From positions 25,301 through 89,300 of the forward strand of contig CAWDZT010000010.1 in NCBI GenBank assembly GCA_963807025.1: a stretch of 64,000 nucleotides of DNA. The letters run 5' to 3'. Below the pieces are notes generated by a model that saw only the letters and a program-made list of their open reading frames with translations, ran no database searches and had not been told where the DNA came from. Below, piece after piece: positions 2,648 to 64,000 of this stretch; within the stretch, counting starts at the first letter, position 1, and the number at the start of each line of letters is the position of its first letter. Both the position numbers and the translations under genes were made by a program. The DNA comes from an uncultured Candidatus Saccharibacteria bacterium (GTDB lineage Bacteria; Patescibacteriota; Saccharimonadia; Saccharimonadales; UBA4665).

Positions 2648-3175
2648 TTACAAAATTAGGTTCATGCAAGCGACCTCCAGCATGCATAGCCTAAGACAAG
2701 CATGTTGCGAATCGTTAGCTATGCTGGCGATCTTGTAGGCGTGGGTTTCGGTGGGGGTGTTGATTTCTACGGTTTCGCCGACCTTTTTGCCCAGCATCGC
2801 CTGCCCTATGGGTGATTCATCGGAAATCTTGCCGCTAAGAGGATCGGCCTCTACGGTGCCGACGACCTGGAATTCCTTGGCCTTGCCGCCGCCGCCCTTC
2901 AGTTTGACGGTGGAACCTATCTGAACCTTGCTGTCGCCGCGCGGCTTGCGGATAATCTCGGCGTTCTGGATGATGTTCTCGAGCTCGGAGATGCGGGCCT
3001 CGTTGCGCTCCTGGTCGGCGCGGGCGGACTGGTATTCGGCGTTCTCGGTAAGGTCGCCCTGTTCGCGGGCGCTTTTAATAGCGTCGGCAATACCGGCGCG
3101 CTTGGCCACCAGCGCGTCGAGTTCGGTCTGCAGTTCATCGACACCTGCGCGGGTCAATCGAAATAACTTCTTCAT
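2648..3175 (-). CDS. greA: transcription elongation factor GreA
   Basis: N-terminal coiled coil (GDLTENAEYQSARADQ) and C-terminal FKBP-like domain (ISDESPIGQAMLGKKVGE), as in GreA. Confidence 0.85.
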   Translation of the reverse strand: MKKLFRLTRAGVDELQTELDALVAKRAGIADAIKSAREQGDLTENAEYQSARADQERNEARISELENIIQNAEIIRKPRGDSKVQIGSTVKLKGGGGKAKEFQVVGTVEADPLSGKISDESPIGQAMLGKKVGETVEINTPTETHAYKIASIANDSQHACLRLCMLEVACMNLIL

Positions 3176-3220: not shown

Positions 3221-4477
3221 TTAGTCGCTAATACCTAGTGTTTTATTCAGTTTTTCTCTGGAAACCTGCTCGGCGTGTTCACCGGAACGGGGCTTAAGTT
3301 CAAACGTACCGGCGGCCTGCGTCTTTGTGCTGACGACCACGCGGTACGGTATGCCCAGAAGGTCGGCGTCGGCGAACTTCTCGCCGGGCCGGGCGTCCCG
3401 GTCATCATATAGTACCTGAACGCCTTTGGCTGTCAAGGATTCATACAGCTCGTCGGCCTCTTTCACGACTTTTGGGTCGTCGCCCAGCCGCGCCAGATAC
3501 ACCTTGAACGGCGCCACCGCTTCCGGCCAGACCAGTCCCTTATCGTCGGCGAACTTCTCGGCTATGACACCCATCAATCTGGATATGCCGATGCCGTATG
3601 AGCCCAGATGGACGTATTGACGCTCGCCGGATTCATCCGTGAACGCCAGCCCCAGCTTCTCGCTCTTATCGGTCCCGAAGTTGAATATGTTGCCGACTTC
3701 GCTGCTCTTAACTTCTTCTAGTTCGTCGCGCTTGACGCCCAGCTTCTTCAGGCTTTCTTCGTCCAGCACCTCTTCGTTGATAGCGATGTCCTTGCCCTTA
3801 TGCAGATAGATGACGTCCTCACCAACGTCGCATAGCGTCTGGAATTCGTGGCTGAACTTTGTGAACGCTCCCCCGCTCGCGAATGTCACGTAGGTATCCT
3901 TGCCGATGCCAAGCCGGTCGTAGACCTTCTTATAGGCCTCGATGACCGAGTCATAGTATTTGTCGTGCTGTTTGGCGTCGGCACTCAGCGAGTACATATC
4001 CTTCATCAGGAATTCGCGGCCGCGCATGATGCCGCTCTTGGCCCTCAGCTCGTTGCGAAGCTTGTTCTGGAACTGATATACGCTTACGGGCAAATCTTTA
4101 TAGCTGCTGATCTGCTGGCGCATCATCTGGACGATCGGTTCCTCGTGCGACCACGCCAAGCCAAGATCCTGGCCGTCCTTGAGCTTGGTCTTGAACCAGA
4201 TATCGACGGTTTTGTCGTCCCAACGGCCGGTCTTTTCCCATAGCTCCTTGGACTGCAATGTAGTCATGGAAAGCTCCTGGCTGCCGACGGCATCCATCTC
4301 TTCGCGCACGACCCGCTTGATGTTCTCCAGAACACGCAGGCCCAGCGGCAGGTAGGCATATACGCCGGCCATTTCTTTGTGGATGTAGCCAGCCCGTATC
4401 AACAGCTGTGCGTTGCGCGCCGTCTCGTCGGCAGGCACGTTCTTACTGGTCTTGGTGAATAACTGGGATAGCCTCAT
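3221..4477 (-). CDS. proS: prolyl-tRNA synthetase, short form without INS editing domain
   Basis: Intact 418-aa ORF with class II motifs (RNELRAKSGIMRGREFLMKD; GSYGIGISRLMGVIAE) and a C-terminal anticodon-binding domain. Confidence 0.85.
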   Translation of the reverse strand: MRLSQLFTKTSKNVPADETARNAQLLIRAGYIHKEMAGVYAYLPLGLRVLENIKRVVREEMDAVGSQELSMTTLQSKELWEKTGRWDDKTVDIWFKTKLKDGQDLGLAWSHEEPIVQMMRQQISSYKDLPVSVYQFQNKLRNELRAKSGIMRGREFLMKDMYSLSADAKQHDKYYDSVIEAYKKVYDRLGIGKDTYVTFASGGAFTKFSHEFQTLCDVGEDVIYLHKGKDIAINEEVLDEESLKKLGVKRDELEEVKSSEVGNIFNFGTDKSEKLGLAFTDESGERQYVHLGSYGIGISRLMGVIAEKFADDKGLVWPEAVAPFKVYLARLGDDPKVVKEADELYESLTAKGVQVLYDDRDARPGEKFADADLLGIPYRVVVSTKTQAAGTFELKPRSGEHAEQVSREKLNKTLGISD

Positions 4478-5288: not shown

Positions 5289-6109
5289 CTATTTGATGTG
5301 TAATACAAACAATAACAGGAACGCGATGCCGTTCTTGGAAGCATGCAGGGTTATGGAAGCCCACAGGCCGCCCGTCTTTTCGCGCAGATAGATCAGTACC
5401 AGGCTGAGTATGAAGGTATCGAGCGCGGCGATGTACAACGGGCCGGCCGCCCCGCCCTCCGGCAGGTGCGCCGCCGCGAACAGCGCGCTAGTAAGAATGA
5501 CGGCGCCTATGGGACGCATGGCCTTCTTGAGCGTGCTGTAAAGGAAGCCGCGGACCATTATCTCTTCCGCCAGCGGCGGCAGAATCACCAGGCTGATGAA
5601 GGTCAGCGCCAGAGCCGCCTGGCCGTGCACGTCGTTGAACCCTATCTGCTGTTGTCTGGTCCACGTTCAGACCAGGCACGAAGTGGCTGACCACGCCGAC
5701 CGTCAGCGCGTACAGCAGGAAATAAGCCGGTACGGCCAGAACGCCATAAGCCACGTCGCTCCAGCGCGGCCGCCTCAGGCCTATCAGCGAAAATCCGGCT
5801 CTTGTAGCGCTTAAGGAACAGGTAGATGGCGCCGATGACGAAAGTTTCGGCCAGCAGGACAAAGACGAACTGGGCCCAGACCGAGCTCGGAAACCCAGTT
5901 CTGAATCCGTAGAATGCGGCCAGTGCCTGACGGCCGGATAGATCGATACCAGCAACCCGGCCGCTAACTGGGAAGCATAGTAGACGACGCACGGTGAACA
6001 GGACGCCCAGCCACGGGTTCCAGGGCACGGGCGGCACTGCCGGCTGCCCGCGCCCGTTGCCGGCCGCTGCCGCGGCGGCCGCCGGAGCGTTAAAAGAATC
6101 GCTTAACAT
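5289..6109 (-). CDS. CPBP family intramembrane glutamic endopeptidase (several frameshifts in the N-terminal half)
   Basis: ORF 5289..5630 has EEIMVRGF (EExxxR) and FAAAH motifs. Upstream hydrophobic pieces are spread over two other frames. Confidence 0.6.
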
Positions 6110-7233
6110 CCACCGATGGTGATGAGGATTATCAGCCCCAGCAGCAATGCGAAACCGGTGGCATTGATAGCTTCTTCGCGCCTGGCCGAGAGCGGCCTTT
6201 TAAGGCCGCGGAATATAAGCGTGAGCCACAGCCGGCCGCCGTCCAGCGCCGGTATCGGCAGGATGTTCATGATCGCCAGCATCAGCGATATGTAGGCGAC
6301 GATGAACAGCATGAACTGGTAGCCTATAAGACTGCCGTTCTTAAGTATGACGATGATGCCCACCGGCCCCGCCACCTGGTCGCTGGCGGCGGTCTGCCCG
6401 TGCTCGCGGGCCGTATGGTTGCCGGTGACGGCACCGGCTATCAGACTGCCCAGGCCGCCCAGGGCATGACCCAGGCCCTGGAAGGTCAGGCCCGTCAGCT
6501 GGGCGCTAAGCCCCACCGCCACCACGGGCGCCGACCAGGTGGAGCGCTGAAAGCTGAAATCGGTCGGTATAACGCCCAGGTAACCGTTCGAGCCGGATGA
6601 CCTTAAGGTGATGTGCGCCTCGTGGTTGTGCCCCGCCCTGGTGTAGTAGACGGTTACCGGCTTGCCGGCGAAATTCTTGGTAATCTTAGGCAGGTTCTTG
6701 GCACTGTCTATGCTGACGGGGCTGTGGCCGGCGATCGCTATGTCGTTTATCTCGTCCTGGGTCCGTAATCCGGCCTTATCCGCCGGCGAACCCGGCTCCA
6801 CGTAGCTTATGAGCGTTTCGCGGGCCGCCAGCTCTGGTGTCCGATTTGACTGTGAACTGGTTATCAATCAGCTTGGGCATGCCTACCAGCGCGATTATAG
6901 TGAACAGTACCAGCGCCGCTATCAGGTTCATGGCCACGCCGGCCGCCATTATCTTGCTTTTGGCCCACAAGCCTGGCGGCGCCGAACGTACCGCGGCCGG
7001 TATCGCTGTCGTGCTCGCCCCTTAAGCCTGACGAAGCCGCCCAGCGGTATGGCGTTCACGGTGAATAACCAGCCGTCCTTCATCTTGCGCTTATACAGTC
7101 TGGGCGGAAAAAATATGCCGAATTCCTCTACCTCTACCCCATTACGCCTGGCCATGACAAAGTGGCCGAACTCATGGATGACCACCAGCCCTATAATCAG
7201 CAGAATCCCCGTTACGAATAAGATGACAGACAT
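6103..7233 (-). CDS. rseP: RIP metalloprotease RseP / M50 site-2 protease (in three frame pieces)
   Basis: HEFGHFVMAR (HExxH) in ORF 6949..7233. PDZ-like middle section and LPIPALDGG motif in ORF 6103..6867. Confidence 0.75.
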
Positions 7234-8394: not shown

Positions 8395-8426
8395 CCAGCA
8401 CCTTTATCAACGGATTTTACAACGTT
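8395..8426. repeat. solo end of the CCAGCACCTT palindromic element family
   Basis: ccagcacctttatcaacggattttacaacgtt starts directly after the ldt stop codon and overlaps the last codons of frr. It shares CCAGCACCTTT...ACAACGT with the other copies. Confidence 0.5.
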
Positions 8427-9594: not shown

Positions 9595-9652
9595 CCCAGC
9601 ACCTTTCTTGTCCTTATTCACAACGTTACTCGTACTATTTGAAGGGTGCTGG
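9595..9652. repeat. palindromic element copy (CCCAGCACCTTT ... GAAGGGTGCTGG) in the rpsB-tsf spacer
   Basis: Inverted 12-nt arms with a 34-nt loop. One arm ends 2 nt before the tsf ATG. The first 32 nt are 28/32 identical to the solo copy at 18327-18358. Confidence 0.6.
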
Positions 9653-18326: not shown

Positions 18327-18358
18327 GACGTTGTGATAAAGGTCAAGAAAGGTGCTGG
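18327..18358. repeat. solo end of the CCAGCACCTT element family
   Basis: The reverse complement, ccagcacctttcttgacctttatcacaacgtc, is 28/32 identical to 9596-9627. It lies 1 nt after the stop codon of the 18360..19109 gene. Confidence 0.55.
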
Positions 18359-34775: not shown

Positions 34776-34842
34776 CCCAGCACCTTTGTTGGCGGTTTTT
34801 ACAACTGGCACTGTTGGTAAAAACTGGCAATAAAGGTGCTGG
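34776..34842. repeat. palindromic element copy (CCCAGCACCTTT ... AAAGGTGCTGG) in the nrdR 5' leader
   Basis: 11-12-nt inverted arms with a 44-nt loop containing tttttacaac. It lies between the NrdR boxes and the nrdR SD. Confidence 0.6.

Positions 34843-53095: not shown

Positions 53096-53102
<7 letters not shown>
52386..53102 (-). CDS. DUF5663-like protein with long Pro/Ala/Gln-rich C-terminal tail
   Basis: The N-terminal 100 aa (LLEEVGLASLPASEKNSFLKHIYETLEMRVG) resemble a domain I recall from Saccharibacteria-type genomes. The tail is low-complexity. Confidence 0.5.
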
Positions 53103-54937
<1,835 letters not shown>

Positions 54938-54952
54938 CGACACTCCTTTCCG

Positions 54953-54980
54953 CCCAGCACCTTTGTCCAAAGGTGCTGGG
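54953..54980. repeat. minimal hairpin CCCAGCACCTTT-gtcc-AAAGGTGCTGGG in the rpsA-infB spacer
   Basis: Perfect 12-bp stem with a 4-nt loop and no U-run. It lies 8 nt after the rpsA stop and 16 nt before the infB ATG. Confidence 0.7.
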
Positions 54981-58642: not shown

Positions 58643-58647
58643 CAAAA

Positions 58648-58762
58648 TTTGGCACCGTGCTATCTTCCCAGGGGTGAACCCCAAGTATTGTAACCGCTTC
58701 GAGACTTAACTGCTGTGTTCGGCATGGGAACAGGTGTTGCCCTCGGGCTATGGGCACCAACC
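58648..58762 (-). rRNA. rrf: 5S ribosomal RNA
   Basis: Minus-sense sequence contains CCCATGCCGAACACAGCAGTTAAG and closing helix I (UUGGUGCC / GGUGCCAA). Confidence 0.85.
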
Positions 58763-58796
58763 CGGCCACCTTTCCGTAGAAAGGTGCTGGGCCGGC
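58762..58796. repeat. hairpin with the family core (CACCTTTC-cgta-GAAAGGTGCTGGG) in the 23S-5S spacer
   Basis: ccggccacctttccgtagaaaggtgctgggccgg. The stem flanks are GCCGG/CCGGC. Confidence 0.5.
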
Positions 58797-59168
58797 ACCC
58801 AAGCGGGCGGCGGCACGGTTCTTAAGAAGCTAATGAACGTACTGGTGCTACGATGCTTCGTAAGCACCGACGACCGGTCAATTGCGCGTAAAAAGTCAAT
58901 GCCTCTATTAGTACGCTTCGGCTACACATGTCGCCATGCTTCTACCTTGCGCCTATCAACCTGATGGTCTTTCAGGGAGGTCATAGGGAAATCTTATCTT
59001 AAGGGAGGCTTCGCGCTTAATATGCTTTCAGCGCTTATCCCGTCCGCACGATAGCTACTGGACAATGCTCCTGGTGGAACAATCCATACACCAGAGGTGC
59101 GTTCGACCCGGTCCTCTCGTACTAGGGCCAACTCCTCTCAAATTTCCTTGCGTCCACAGCGGGTATAA

Positions 59169-59239
<71 letters not shown>

Positions 59240-59253
59240 AAGGTGCTCCCCCT

Positions 59254-59288
<35 letters not shown>

Positions 59289-59573
59289 AGCGCCGTCTAT
59301 GTGAACTATTGGGCGCTATAAGCCTGTTATCCCCGGCGTAACTTTTATCCGAAAGCGCTGCCGATACCACTCTCATGTACATGAAATGTACGGACAGCGG
59401 AAAACTTACTCCTACTTTCGTACCTGCTCGGCTTGTAGGCCTCACAGTCAAGCTGGCTTATGCGTATACACTATCACTACGATTTCCATCCGTAGTTAGC
59501 CAACCTTTGAACGCCTCCGATACTCTTTAGGAGGCAACCGCCCCAGTTAAACTACCCACCAGACACGGTCCCA

Positions 59574-59768
59574 GAACCAGAAACATCCACGAATCCGTTT
59601 AGGCGATATCAGATACATTCGCGCCGAGACCTAATTTACGGTCTCTTGCGAACGTACCTGAATCGCTTTACTAGCGACTCGCGCATATTTCTGAGACACC
59701 GTAATTTAGGTGTCGGGGAAATATGCGACGATGTCGCTAGAAGCGGTTCATGGGCAGTTTGTGGTCCT
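59574..59768 (-). other. rRNA expansion of about 170 extra nt at the position of 23S helix 79
   Basis: Only about 23 nt separate GACACNGUC and GUUAGAACA in E. coli, against about 195 nt here. It contains the hairpins GCATATTTC..GACACC-taaattac-GGTGTC..GAAATATGC and GAGACC-gtaaatta-GGTCTC. It has no CCAGCACCTT ends. Confidence 0.6.
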
Positions 59769-60212
59769 GGTAAGAACAAGATCATGACAAGGGTGGTATT
59801 TCACTGATGGCTCCACCGCCGACTAGCGCGGCGGCTTCAAAGCCTCCCACCTATGCTACACATGTCATAACCCGGCTCAATGCCAAGCTGTAGTAAAGCT
59901 GCACGGGGTCTTTTCGTCCTGCTGCGGACAGACGGCATCTTTACCGCCAATGCACTTTCACCGAGCTCTTCGTCGAGACAGTACCCATATCATTGCGCCA
60001 TTCGTGCAGGTCAGAACTTACCTGACAAGGAATTTCGCTACCTTAGGACGGTTATAGTTACCGCCGCCGTTCACCGGGGCTTCAGTTTGCTGCTAAACAC
60101 AGCTCACCTTAACCTTCCGGCACCGGGCAGGCGTCAGCCCGTATACATCCACTTTCGTGTTAGCACAGACCTATGTTTTTGGTAAACAGTTGCATGGGTT
60201 CCTTAGCTGCGG

Positions 60213-60272
60213 CCCAGCACCTTGCTAACCACGAATTACATCGTTGTAAATCATGACCAGAAAGGTGCTGGG
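60213..60272. repeat. 60-nt palindromic element copy within 23S (helix 63 region)
   Basis: cccagcaccttgctaaccacgaattacatcgttgtaaatcatgaccagaaaggtgctggg lies between conserved AAGTTACGG.. and ..CAACTGTTTACC blocks. Confidence 0.65.
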
Positions 60273-60760
60273 CAGGCCTTATTCCGAAGTTACGGCCGCT
60301 GTTTTGCCGAGTTCCTTGACGAAGAATCACTCGTACACCTTGGTCTTCTCGACCTGAGCACCTGTGTCGGTTTGCGGTACGGATAGCATAGTCCACGCGC
60401 CGGAATGCTTTTCTAGTCAGCACTTTTACTGGAATCCGACCATAAGGTCGTCTCATTCGCAGGCGTTCCTCCTGCTTAGACGGGTATAACCGTGAACCCG
60501 CTCCAACTAATATGCCGCGCACATCCGGCAAGACTACGCTAGTACGGGAATATTAACCCGTTGTCCATCGCCTACGCTACGCGCCTCGGCTTAGGACCGA
60601 CTAACCCTGGGACGATTATCGTGGCCCAGGAAACCTTGCTCTTTCGGTGGGCAGGATTCTCACCTGCCTTATCGTTACTCGTTCCAGCATTCTCACTTCC
60701 TAACGCTCCACGGAATCTCGCGATTTCGCTTCGGCGCGATAGGAACGCTCCTCTACCGCC

Positions 60761-60829
60761 CCCAGCACCTTACTTAGCATTTTTTACATACATACGCGAT
60801 GTTGTAAACAATGCTAAGTAAGGTGCTGG
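60761..60829. repeat. 69-nt palindromic element copy within 23S (helix 45 tip)
   Basis: cccagcaccttacttagcattttttacatacatacgcgatgttgtaaacaatgctaagtaaggtgctgg replaces the H45 hairpin between GAAGNU..GG and GGTAGAGGAGCGTTC. Confidence 0.65.
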
Positions 60830-61444
60830 AGACCCATATCTTCGGTACTACGCTTGAGCCCCGTTACATTTTCCGCGCGGGATCTCTTGACGAGTGAGCT
60901 GTTACGCACTCTTTAAATGAATGGCTGCTTCTAAGCCAACATCCTCGTTGTCGAAGAAATCCCACCTCGTTTCCCACTTAGCGTAAATTTAGGGACCTTA
61001 GATGATGGTCTGGGCTGTTTCCCTTTTGAGCGACGAGCTTAGCCCCGCCGTTCTAACTGCCGTAGTTCCACTGACCGTATTCGTAGTTTGTCAAGGGTGG
61101 GTATCCGTAAGGACCCCATTCCGAAACAGAGCTCTACCCCAGTCAGCTACCGTACGACGCTAGCCCTAAAGCTATTTCGAGGAGAACCAGCTATCTCCAG
61201 GTTCGATTGGCATTTCACCTCTAACCACAGGTCATCCGGGCATTTTGAAACATGCTGCGGTTCGGTCCTCCACGCAGTTTTACCTGCGCTTCAACCTGCC
61301 CATGGTTAGGTCACCTGGTTTCGGGTCTAATCCATACAACTAATTCGCCCTATTCAGGCTCGCTTTCACTATGCCTACGACAAATGTCTTAAGCTTGCTG
61401 CATGAATTAACTCGCTGGATCGTTCTACAAAAAGCACGCCGTCA

Positions 61445-61865
61445 CCCAGCACCTTTACCATCAACATTTACAACGGTCCGGTTCAATCGAATGAACGATT
61501 AAACTGGTCTATGGCCTTCGGGAAACCAAGCTGTTTCTTAAGCTTAGTTCTCGCTTGGCCGTAATGTTTTAGCTGCTTCTCTCTTGCTAACGCTAATCTT
61601 CGTGAGGTATATGCCTCATAATAAACGATTTTCCAGGGGCGCAAACGTCTCGTTGAAACGTTTTCGCCGGCATTATGCTGACCTAATCTTCTCTTTAGAT
61701 TGTTGGTCTGACCATAGTAGATATGTCGCTTATTCCGAAGACTCTGCAGAATATAGACGTAAAGCACAGCTCCACTGTATATTCCACCCATCTCCGTTCA
61801 AAGAAATTTAACATTAGTTTAAGAAGCAACCAGCCGTTGTCAAATTTGATGACAAAGGTGCTGGG
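61445..61865 (-). mobile_element. 421-bp element with about 33-bp imperfect terminal inverted repeats, carrying a GIY-YIG ORF, inserted at 23S helix 25
   Basis: Left end cccagcacctttaccatcaacatttacaacggt. Right end (reverse complement) cccagcacctttgtcatcaaatttgacaacggc. The ends are 27/33 identical. The flanks correspond to E. coli GGGAG|..H25..|UGACUGCGUACC. Confidence 0.65.
61483..61791 (-). CDS. GIY-YIG nuclease family protein (102 aa), same strand as the rRNA
   Basis: VLYVYILQS...HIYYGQTNNLKRRLGQHN...RPWKIVYYEAY...ALAREKQLK matches GIY..YIG, the conserved Arg, and the catalytic Glu context. Confidence 0.8.
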   Translation of the reverse strand: MGGIYSGAVLYVYILQSLRNKRHIYYGQTNNLKRRLGQHNAGENVSTRRLRPWKIVYYEAYTSRRLALAREKQLKHYGQARTKLKKQLGFPKAIDQFNRSFD

Positions 61866-62290
61866 CTCCGACTCCTTGTACGCACACAATTTCAGGATCT
61901 ATTTCACTCCCCTTCCGGGGTTCTTTTAACCTTTCCCTCACGGTACTTGTACACTATCGATCGTAAGATATATTTAGCCTTGGGAGGTGGACCTCCCGGA
62001 TTCAGTCAGGGTTTCACGTGTCCCGACTTACTCGACTCTGCAAGTGATAAAGTTCGTAAAACTTGGTATACCAGGCTTTCACTGTCTGTGGCCCCACTTT
62101 CCAGAGGGTTCTACTCGCATTACGTATTTATGACTTTATGCCGATTGATGGTAGCATCGGCGCCTTTTGCAACCCTTCATAAAAAGGGTAACAAAAGGTT
62201 ACTTGCAGGTCACAACCCCTTAATAACATTCGTCTACCAACTTATCCATCCGGCAAATTGCCAGATGAAAGTCATTAAGGTTTGGGCTGA

Positions 62291-62321
<31 letters not shown>

Positions 62322-62853
62322 ATTGGTTATTTTCTCTTCCTCAGGGTACTAAGATGTTTCAGTTCCCCTGCTTACCACTACCCGACCCTATATATTCAGG
62401 CCAGTGTGACCAGGTATGACCCTGGCCGGGTTTCCCCATTCGGACACCTCCGGATCAAAGCATATTTGGCTGCTCCCCGGAGCTTTTCGCAGCTCATCGC
62501 GTCCTTCGTCGGTATCTTACGTCAAGGCATCCGTTATGTGCGCTTGAGTAACTTTTTACGATTTGACTTGGCTACCGTTCGGTGAAGATCGGCACCAAGC
62601 CTAAAGTGCAATTGACCGGTCATCGGTGATTACCTAAGTAACTCCGACTCCGTCGTCCATTGCTTCTCTTTGAATCACCCTGTTAAAGGGGTGATCCGTC
62701 GACCTAATTGTTAAATTGCTAAACTCGGAAACTTGCTGATACGCGGTGGTGCCTAAAAGCACCCTCCCTATCATTCAAGCTTGAGTTTACGTTCAACTTT
62801 TCTGCCTAATTGCCCGGCTGACTAGCCTGGACCTAAACTCAAGCGTTCATATA

Positions 62854-62882
62854 ATTATACGCTTCTTAACAGGGGCGGTCAA
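62854..62882 (-). promoter_or_regulatory. near-consensus sigma70 promoter of the 23S-5S operon (TTGACC-17 nt-TATAAT)
   Basis: Reverse complement of 62877-62882 is TTGACC, spacer is 17 nt, and reverse complement of 62854-62859 is TATAAT. It lies about 290 nt upstream of the 23S 5' end. Confidence 0.6.
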
Positions 62883-63014
62883 GCCCCTTGTGCTGTCTGA
62901 TTTGCAACAGTCTGGTATCTAGAAACGGTTCTCTGACGTGGGGTTTTAGCGCAGGGTAAGCCTCCTGTACGTACAGGCTTGGCCCCCTTGTGTGCCTGCT
63001 GCATCCGCATTGCC

Positions 63015-64000
63015 TTACTGGGCGATGAAGTAGTCGAACTTGTAGGTGGTGTTCGCCTGTGGCGCATCCAGGGCGTTGAACATGAAGTCAGTGGCAGAGG
63101 TCGAGCCCTTGAAGAACTTAAGGCCGGCGGCCTTGCCGTTGGACGCGCTCAGGACGATGTGCGGCGCCTGGCCGTAGGTCTTGCTGAACAGTATCTTGGC
63201 CAGGTCGCCCGCCGAAGGCGCGTAGCCGGTGGTTATGGTAATCGTACCGGTGGTGTCGGTACCGTCCACGGATACGTCGGCGCCCGTGCCGCCCGCCGCA
63301 GTCTGGGCCTGGGCCGTCGGCTGGCCGCCGGCGGTGATGATATGCCCGCCCACGGTGATGTTGCCGGCGAACTCGGCCGAACCGGTGACGCTCAGCGTGC
63401 CGATGGTGGCCGTACCGGCATTGAAGGTGGTAACCGTCAGGTCGTTGATGGTGGCCGTGCCGGAAGCGTTCAGGTCGGCAAAGTCGGCCGAACCGCTGAC
63501 GGTCAGGCCCGCCAGAGTGGCATTGCCGCCGTTCTGGATGTAGCTGGTCTGGCTGGGACCGGGCCAGTAGCCCGGCTCGACGAAGACCATCACCTGGGTC
63601 TTGCCAGAGCCCGGATCCCAGGCCTCCAGCGCCTTACCTATGACATAGCCGGCGCCGGTGGCCTTCATGGCCTTACCGCTATCGCCGGAGGTCGTCAGGT
63701 AGTCGCCCGGCGCTATCGCATCGGAGCCGGGCGAGACGTTGACCGGTACGCGGCCGTTCAGGGCCACGGGCATGGGGTTATCCGCACGGCTTGATGTTGT
63801 TACCGGCCGAGGTGAAGTTATTGTAGTTCTTGGAAACGATACCGACGGTGCTGGACTGGTACGGAGCGGACGACTTGACCAGCTGGGTGACCTGGCCGTT
63901 CACGTCATTCCAGTCTACCCTGCCCTCGGAGTCTTCGCCGTAGGTGTTGACCGTATTGGTGCCGGTAGCCACGATATCGCCATAGCTCGCGCCGCTGGCT
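63015..64000 (-). CDS. large secreted/surface repeat protein, C-terminal part (continues beyond the window; frameshift near 63775)
   Basis: ORFs 63015..63773 and 63778..63972. Repeated beta-helix-like LTVSGSADFADLNASGTATINDLTVT / LSVTGSAEFAGNITVGG segments. Confidence 0.5.

Follow-up and report, generated by a model that had tools for sequence, protein, structure and literature searches.

The locus considered here raises the question of whether a 60-nt palindrome at the tip of a 23S rRNA helix is part of that helix or a copy of a dispersed repeat and, if the latter, where it came from and what may become of it in the RNA. The window, that is, the whole stretch of DNA that was analysed (64,000 nt), derives from a metagenome-type assembly with at least one frameshifted gene. 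On its plus strand, positions 60213-60272 read CCCAGCACCTTGCTAACCACGAATTACATCGTTGTAAATCATGACCAGAAAGGTGCTGGG, and the block reported there in an initial annotation of this DNA is indeed present. It is a near-perfect palindrome of 58-60 nt (core 60214-60271; rRNA sense, on the minus strand, CCCAGCACCUUUCUGGUCAUGAUUUACAACGAUGUAAUUCGUGGUUAGCAAGGUGCUGGG) made of two arms of about 29 nt and a 4-nt loop, which gives 58 nt, or 60 nt with the flanking C/G. In rRNA sense the 5' arm (60243-60272, minus strand, CCCAGCACCTTTCTGGTCATGATTTACAACG) lies near the consensus of the repeat family described below, and the 3' arm (60213-60242, read on the plus strand as an inverted repeat, CCCAGCACCTTGCTAACCACGAATTACATCG) is more diverged.

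The block is embedded in a 23S rRNA gene of 3672 nt (58887-62558, minus strand; Rfam RF02541, 2535 bits, model positions 1-2925), after which a 5S gene is found at 58647-58761. The minus-strand orientation of the rRNA gene corrects a point of the initial annotation. No 16S gene and no tRNA gene were found in the 64-kb window. The 23S gene exceeds the consensus length (2925-position model) by about 750 nt because of several insertions, and relative to E. coli rrlH large extra segments are located after position ~278, at 540-549 (helix 25, H25), at 1163-1180 (helix 45, H45), at ~1708 (helix 63, H63) and at ~2212 (H79). Pairwise alignment to rrlH puts the block directly after E. coli position ~1708. 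When the sub-region alone was aligned to the Rfam LSU model, the outer 12 bp of the block fell on the consensus stem straight after the H62 hairpin, leaving 37 additional nt in its loop. The block therefore sits in H63, as had been proposed from a by-eye alignment. Its description as lying between conserved 23S blocks holds as far as location within 23S is concerned, but not as a clean insertion, since the element takes the place of the native tip: at the same site of a relative (L024), just CUGCCAGGUAUAAAACCCUGGCCACAG, an 18-nt native hairpin, stands between identical flanks. Intron covariance models gave zero matches at gathering threshold across the window, 23S included, and an intron reading of the block was rejected, as neither group I nor group II models matched it.

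Several lines of evidence place the block in a dispersed family. The 10-mer CCAGCACCTT, with at most one mismatch, was found 35 times in the window versus 4.0 +/- 2.3 times in shuffles, and its occurrences at 60214 (plus) and 60271 (minus) are the conserved 11-nt terminus of the H63 copy at both ends, inverted. In 13 arms of the window the termini share one register, CCAGCACCTTT-N11-TnACAACG. A position matrix (PWM) was built from 29 arms, all from related metagenomic loci and without window sequences, and with the full arm 13 window positions scored higher than anything in 30 simulated windows. Scored on inner positions 12-30 alone, with the 11-nt stem left out, the 5' arm of the H63 copy (full PWM 38.8, inner 18.2) ranks 7 and the 3' arm (full 25.1, inner 9.0) ranks 37 among 127,938 window positions. 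In the same way, a covariance model (CM) of ten small copies from relatives, which contains no window sequence, matched the H63 copy over its full length (model 1-62) on the rRNA-sense strand with 65.2 bits (E 2.4e-17), while the best non-family match in the window reached 13.7 bits. The H63 arm cccagcacctttctggtcatgatttacaacg is identical to the arms at 9596 and 18358 at 26 and 23 of 30 positions, respectively, in line with the match that had been noticed by inspection, and the two H63 arms share 24/30 and 21/30 positions with the right terminus of a 421-nt element at H25.

The initial annotation had allowed that the likeness might be confined to the 11-nt stem; the inner-arm ranks and the full-length CM match show that it reaches beyond it. 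As judged by these sequence comparisons, the H63 block is a genuine, lineage-specific member of a family of dispersed hairpin repeats, and the miniature copy recognised at the outset is borne out as such. Two size classes occur among the copies, one of 58 nt (centre ACAACGTTGT) and one of 66-68 nt. In a genome collection of species representatives, the pattern CCAGCACCTTT-N11-TNACAACG gave 20 matches, about the chance expectation, from which the family is taken to be absent from that genome set; the one genome that was matched twice (L006/L008) has no rRNA there, and its matches are a coincidence within the coding region of an integrase-like gene. The large 23S insertions after E. coli position 278 (143 nt) and at H79 (176 nt) were considered as degraded family copies and are treated as unrelated because the CM gave nothing above 13.4 bits there.

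Two further members are located in the same rRNA gene, which bears out the earlier count of three. The H45 sister copy (68-70 nt; 60761-60830, minus strand; CM 66.6 bits) occupies the tip of helix 45 at E. coli 1163-1180 and folds at -50.4 kcal/mol (z -9.6). The long member at the tip of helix 25 (421 nt; 61445-61865, minus strand; E. coli 540-549) was delimited from its inverted-repeat pair and the E. coli alignment. Its termini are inverted repeats of about 30-32 nt, 84% complementary and the same as those of the family, and they flank a nuclease gene. The suggestion that the small copies are two fused terminal repeats is essentially right for H63, which is made of two 29-nt arms and a tetraloop and whose arms both align with the inverted repeats (~32 nt) that bound the H25 element. 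In the 23S-5S spacer, a truncated 29-nt copy consisting of termini only (58762-58790, minus strand; CM 19.2 bits on the plus and 17.4 on the minus strand, E 0.0025) retains the terminus CCAGCACCTTTC at 58790 (minus), and the equivalent region of L024 contains two full copies.

The gene carried by the H25 element encodes, in rRNA sense, a GIY-YIG nuclease (61483-61791, minus strand; Pfam PF01541, E 3e-17). Its longest ORF is 102 aa, and the true start is likely the GTG at 61767, giving about 94 aa as in orthologs. The ORF carries the motif YxYxL...Y.G.T....RR...HN, and its nearest solved structures are UPF0213 BH0048 (1zg2, E 3e-4) and SLX1 (4xlg, E 9e-4); NCBIfam assigned no family to it. SLX1/UPF0213 is a structure-specific branch of the GIY-YIG superfamily, and the H25 product, with its best solved-structure matches in this YhbQ-like group, is a predicted nuclease. 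To our knowledge, no SLX1/UPF0213 repair or structure-specific nuclease has been seen on inverted-repeat elements. Among five orthologs, pN is 0.09-0.20 for a pS of 0.8-0.9 at which synonymous sites are saturated, and since pN is so far below pS the protein must be under purifying selection.

The family is not confined to rRNA, as copies also occur in spacers and in infB. A 66-nt copy (34777-34842, plus strand; CM 65.2 bits) lies in the ftsZ-nrdR spacer immediately upstream of the nrdR ribosome-binding site. Another, of 58 nt (54660-54717, minus strand; CM 43.1 bits), is located within infB and is translated in frame in the IF-2 linker (...STFAGSNNNVVTGDGKGTG...); homologs are 11 aa shorter at exactly that point, and the window IF-2 is 66-75% identical to named homologs of Candidatus Saccharimonadales/Saccharimonadia (CPR), whereby the organism is placed in that group. 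An exact-sequence look-up of one window protein gave no entry. The spacer between rpsA (S1) and infB contains a perfect mini-palindrome of 26 nt made of two termini only (54954-54979, no strand assigned; CM 32.4 bits), and that between rpsB and tsf a 57-nt copy with a full arm and a 12-nt inverted terminus (9596-9652, plus strand; PWM 38.9, CM 25.8 bits). Solitary arms were found filling the spacer of the convergent ykuD-like and frr genes (8395-8424, plus strand; PWM 35.9) and at convergent gene ends downstream of prmC (18329-18358, minus strand; PWM 35.4).

Occupancy of the sites varies among relatives. Four metagenomic loci (L022 to L025), reached through close homologs of the nuclease, represent the same 23S-5S locus in related species, and for L024 and L025 this identity is backed by ROK and S1 synteny. 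All four have the GIY-YIG copy at H25 and, wherever the region is covered, the small copy at H45. The site near E. coli 278 holds a family copy in L023 and L024 and none in the window or L022, and that near 1557 is occupied only in L025. Copies were also observed in the 23S leader of L023 and L024 and in the trailer and spacer of L024, and a small copy is nested within the H25 element of L024. The 23S gene of L025 carries a group I intron at E. coli position 2593. Among the close relatives that cover H63 (L024 and L025), the family copy is found in the window only, and L025 has an unrelated segment of about 97 nt there. Scanning metagenomes with the H62/H63 flank yielded 120 further Saccharimonadia-like 23S loci, in which the H63 tips are unrelated and no family copy was found anywhere; apparent family matches in them correspond to the conserved 23S segment TCAGCACCTTCA... 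and were discarded, and the loci served as a negative control and for comparison with empty sites. Across related CPR 23S genes, H63 ranges in length from a tetraloop hairpin of about 12 nt up to about 300 nt.

L146, a more distant relative in which the nuclease shows 52% identity, repeats this architecture with a sister terminus, CGAGCAC...GTGCTCG. Its locus has a GIY-YIG copy at H25, one copy in the 23S leader and more small copies within 23S, among them a 77-nt sister-family copy at exactly the H63 site of the window. H63 is thus a recurrent landing site, given the identical position, and the existence of this sister family indicates that the termini of nuclease-bearing and small copies change jointly between lineages. 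The association of nuclease and termini is not universal for the protein family, since two distant GIY-YIG homologs (L148 and L149) are free-standing, beside a tRNA gene and without inverted repeats. Target-site duplications were absent from 16 of the 20 copies examined; the other four have short flanking repeats (5 nt at infB, 4 nt at H45 of L025, and two of 2 nt), and the H63 copy is flanked by merely a 2-nt GC repeat. Several relatives without the element have the terminus 9-mer AGCACCTTT as part of their native H25 (GGAGCACCTTTATGGTGTGAC), and for this reason part of the H25 terminus may be host-derived.

At the RNA level, the H63 copy is predicted to fold in rRNA sense at -34.7 kcal/mol (z -8.2), versus -26.5 on the opposite strand. 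The predicted hairpin has 11 + 10 + 5 bp (about 26 bp), two 1x1 mismatches and a tetraloop, and stacks on the host stem CUGC/GCAG. Over 29 positions, the arms form 22 Watson-Crick pairs, 4 G·U pairs and 3 mismatches, and the strands differ in energy because, in rRNA sense, the arms depart from each other by G·U pairing at four positions. Such a bias is general: among 12 copies in rRNA-operon transcripts, G·U outnumbered A·C in the transcribed sense by 28:8 (p = 6e-4), or by 27 to 4 without two poorly aligned copies (p = 2e-5), although strand-biased mutation could add to this excess. Over a set of 14 small copies, compensatory changes affect 12 of the 27 pairs, and 42 double-change cells were counted versus 17.2 +/- 3.1 in shuffles, none of 500 shuffles reaching as high and all slid registers scoring far lower; palindromes can nevertheless be complementary by origin. 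The 11-bp termini are invariant across sites and species in which synonymous sites are saturated, and the inner arms vary with compensation. Because the arms covary and the mismatches are biased to G·U in rRNA sense, the RNA hairpin is considered to be under selection. The sequence data thus indicate that the hairpin is maintained and that, in the rRNA operon at least, the constraint acts on RNA.

The element has features in common with several known systems. The classical intervening sequences (IVSs) of helices 25 and 45 of 23S rRNA, found in Salmonella, Yersinia, Leptospira and Coxiella, are excised by RNase III and some carry an ORF. Like them, the H63 copy is an extended stem-loop in place of a variable helix tip, and the family has sister copies at H25 and H45, one with a rRNA-sense ORF, and a patchy distribution among relatives. 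Unlike them, it lies off the classical sites; the ORF of the family encodes a GIY-YIG nuclease instead of the S23p/23S_rRNA_IVP four-helix protein, and the window family also occurs in spacers and in a protein gene. The Coxiella IVS, for comparison, measures 428 nt and carries an S23p ORF (PMC4990558). In a survey of CPR rRNA genes, Tsurumaki et al. (2024) found that insertions in Saccharibacteria are for the most part short and lack introns and homing endonucleases, that GIY-YIG ORFs occur in non-intron insertions at poorly conserved sites, and that short CPR insertions at the H25 and H45 sites may be RNase III IVSs; only insertions of at least 100 bp were counted, and inverted repeats or MITEs are unmentioned (PMC11270868). 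The host of the window is likewise Saccharimonadia-like, but its short insertions belong to one dispersed palindromic family that has its termini in common with a GIY-YIG insertion.

Among palindromic repeats, the RPEs of Rickettsia and the MITEs of Coxiella are short and insert between genes, into RNA genes and, in frame, into protein genes (PMC5896051). The present family inserts similarly in spacers, in an RNA gene and in frame in infB, also in a small-genome bacterium. Its elements are shorter (58-68 nt) and cluster at rRNA helix tips, and a long, nuclease-encoding partner can be identified for them. For insertion in frame and in RNA genes, the closest functional counterparts are the RPEs and the MITEs of Coxiella, the likeness being functional only. 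With classical MITEs, the family has in common small size, terminal inverted repeats, multiple copies and a longer element with matching termini. It differs from them in having no consistent target-site duplication, in that the whole element is one hairpin, and in that the partner at 61445-61865 carries a GIY-YIG nuclease in place of a known transposase. As for REP/REPIN sequences, no IS200/IS605-like Y1 transposase (RAYT) was found among the window ORFs searched.

Helix 63 is also the site of the eukaryotic expansion segment ES27L (PMC11346433, PMC7102955), which resembles the H63 copy as extra helical RNA emerging from H63; the window host is bacterial, and its segment is far smaller and a putative part of the mature ribosome. 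MITEs are mentioned as known in the rDNA of Nosema bombycis in a work cited in PMC10946416, and there too repeats are tolerated in functional rRNA genes. In the literature searched, no prior description was found of a bacterial GIY-YIG gene with terminal inverted repeats or MITEs, or of MITEs in bacterial 23S, which is not proof of novelty. The H63 hairpin element thus combines features of known kinds, namely 23S IVSs, MITE/RPE-like palindromes and CPR rRNA insertions.

The palindromic family is dispersed with variable occupancy and shares its termini with a conserved nuclease gene. In the reading that we favour, with a probability of roughly 80%, the H63 block is a non-autonomous, MITE- or RPE-like hairpin copy of a mobile element that replaced the H63 tip and whose hairpin forms in the 23S precursor. 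The copy would amount to just the two inverted termini (~29 nt each) of the longer, nuclease-encoding element at H25. At the DNA level, it would have landed on a short native H63 tip and replaced it in one Saccharimonadia (CPR) lineage. At the RNA level, it would be transcribed within the 23S precursor and fold into a hairpin of about 26 bp stacked on the remaining base of H63, where, we propose, the variable and solvent-exposed character of the H63 tip allows it to be tolerated. The GIY-YIG protein may mobilise the family, perhaps by cutting hairpin or cruciform DNA, after which repair of the structure-specific cleavage would copy the hairpin from another locus. The hairpin might then be kept as a bacterial expansion segment or be removed by RNase III like the classical IVSs.

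Some observations fit this account less well. No consistent target-site duplication accompanies the copies, and a classical DDE-type MITE mechanism is not supported for that reason. The elements at rRNA sites substitute for the native tip, which recombination or gene conversion would explain too. We know of no GIY-YIG protein that acts as a transposase, and with free-standing homologs that lack inverted repeats (L148 and L149) the nuclease could be a passenger. The native occurrence of AGCACCTTT at H25 in some element-free relatives also complicates the picture; it makes an H25 origin possible, and the family may, on sequence grounds, have arisen from an H25 intervening sequence or native H25 hairpin. 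A bolder version, which is doubtful as a whole, would have an SLX1/UPF0213-type nuclease element of about 420 nt with 30-nt termini, itself perhaps stemming from the native H25 hairpin, spawn hairpins of 58-68 nt that replace hairpin tips without target-site duplication. If so, its targets would be rRNA helix tips, terminator-like spacers and flexible protein linkers, and it would build expansion segments at H25, H45 and H63, where eukaryotes carry ES7, ES15 and ES27.

The alternatives differ in whether they concern the origin of the block or its fate. That the block is simply a native, lineage-specific helix 63 whose likeness to the family is due to chance or convergence has hardly any credibility left: its outer stem does align to the consensus H63 stem, and GC-rich CC...GG stems are common at H63 in relatives, but such a helix would not account for a full-length match (E 2.4e-17) to a model without window sequences, for inner-arm similarity far above chance, for its absence from all of the ~120 related H63 tips or for family copies at non-rRNA sites. 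The inner-arm ranks and the relatives-only CM match effectively refute it. Ectopic recombination between similar hairpins, or gene conversion between them, could also have spread the copies among helix tips in place of any mobility encoded by the element, the GIY-YIG gene being an unrelated passenger of an H25 IVS. Native tips replaced without target-site duplications, an outer terminus resembling native H25 sequence and the free-standing state of some homologs would all fit such a process. It appears improbable in view of the copies without common flanking homology (rpsB-tsf, ftsZ-nrdR, the infB coding sequence and convergent gene ends), of the copy nested inside another copy and of the termini of nuclease-bearing and small copies that co-vary between two lineages.

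Concerning its fate, the hairpin may behave as a classical-type IVS, with RNase III cutting out the duplex of about 26 bp without religation, so that mature 23S would be fragmented at H63, H25 and H45. With 26 bp, two 1x1 mismatches and stacking on the host stem, the duplex is long enough for this. H25 and H45, where the sister copies lie, are the two classical RNase III sites, and selection on RNA pairing is what a dsRNA processing signal needs. An equal pairing constraint is predicted for a retained helix, and the literature searched does not record H63 as a site of IVSs or of fragmentation, which leaves this outcome tentative, at somewhat less than even odds. That the hairpin stays in mature 23S and forms a small bacterial expansion segment, analogous to ES27L, seems a similarly tentative prospect: H63 is the ES27L site (PMC11346433, PMC7102955), its range of ~12 to ~300 nt in related CPR 23S indicates that it tolerates large retained or removable extensions, and the G·U bias points to long-term upkeep of an RNA helix, but CPR rRNA insertions are generally treated as removed (PMC11270868). 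It is very unlikely that the invariant 11-bp termini are an RNA-level signal for an intron-like excision with religation that would render copies harmless in rRNA and mRNA. Termini invariant across sites and species beside inner arms that vary with compensation would suit such a signal, as would the copy inside infB; yet that copy reads through in frame, and its precise excision would shift the infB frame because 58 nt is not a multiple of 3. The 23S gene of the window also lacks any intron-model match.

CPR rRNA genes are known to be laden with insertions, and many short ones without introns or ORFs had been unexplained. In one Saccharimonadia clade, short 23S insertions turn out to be copies of a single dispersed hairpin family. 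Its termini tie this family to an insertion that bears a nuclease gene, it still varies among relatives, and selection on the RNA helix shapes it. In practical terms, such copies lengthen and vary 23S in MAGs, and the repeat can lie in frame within essential genes such as infB. Through this family, selfish DNA would also have a possible and testable way of seeding expansion segments or IVSs in rRNA, including at H63, the site of ES27L.

The 23S-5S unit appears to be unlinked from the 16S gene in the window's clade, since neither 16S nor tRNA genes were found in the 1.4 kb upstream of the window's 23S gene (62559-64000) and since, in the loci L022-L024 from related species, protein genes lie upstream of 23S (toxin-antitoxin, FG-GAP and a 1503-aa protein). 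A processing stem of 26 nt with 92% complementarity flanks the window's 23S gene (58860-58885 / 62608-62633).

By comparison with E. coli, this gene also contains two large non-family insertions, namely 143 nt forming three hairpins after E. coli position ~278 (62132-62274) and 176 nt at helix 79 (59582-59757), the latter being shared with L024, in which it reaches 207 nt. At position ~278, a family copy was found in both L023 and L024 at the exact place of the window's 23-nt hairpin TCATCTGGCAATTTGCCGGATGG. In the related locus L025, the 23S gene harbors a group I intron (2524-2839, at E. coli ~2593; Rfam RF00028, 52.5 bits) that is missing from the window's 23S gene. A conserved H63 expansion of ~190-300 nt is common to many Saccharimonadia 23S genes (L039, L042, L055, L061, L079 and many others). 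It reads CCCCCTCACTGTGTTAATCACAG...GCCAGTTTTCTTT...AAGTTTTTAACTTCTT...GATAGAGTGAGGGGG, differs from the palindromic H63 copy of the window and represents a distinct family of H63 expansions that is apparently widespread.

The family copy in infB (54660-54717) is in-frame and translated, and it falls in the linker that joins IF2_N to the G domain of IF-2. It is bracketed by the 5-nt direct repeat GCTTC; of the 20 copies compared, no other shows a convincing candidate target-site duplication. In the same gene (53096-54970, minus strand), ~80 residues of IF-2 (about aa 467-545) are out of register with all homologs before the frame is regained, the window reading RFARVQPQPGLARQDKRTHVQ... where the homologs read PASSRQQASRDKISVRLYKVIYEL..., and the final ~10 residues at the C-terminus are likewise unlike the homologs. 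The disturbance looks like two compensating frameshifts, whose source would seem to be either indel errors in the assembly or a gene in decay. Mini palindromes made of two 11-12-nt family termini and nothing else, such as CCAGCACCTTTGTCCAAAGGTGCTGG, occur at 54954-54979 and 58762-58790; they could be deletion derivatives of full family copies or footprints left by their excision.

A sister family, with termini CGAGCAC(C/G)T.C...G.A(G/C)GTGCTCG, was observed in the more distant relative L146. Its copies (2992-3066, 3479-3572, 3969-4260, 5684-5760 and 6215-6310) are located in the 23S leader, at E. coli ~227, in H25, in H63 and within a 371-nt insertion at E. coli 1931, and the H25 copy carries the GIY-YIG gene. 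Distant GIY-YIG homologs with ~50% identity are free-standing in L148 (4001-4349) and L149 (4001-4354). Both are positioned after pyruvate kinase in conserved synteny, with a tRNA gene 3-7 nt beyond their end, and inverted repeats flanking the nuclease gene are absent in both.

In the element-free Saccharimonadia compared (L050, L073, L090, L100, L112, L032 and L102), native H25 is a hairpin of ~12 nt that, together with its flank, contains AGCACCTTT (GGAGCACCTTTATGGTGTGAC) or CCAG...CTGG, identical to the outer stretch of the family's terminus. Such a terminus-like native sequence hints that H25 may be the birthplace of the family.
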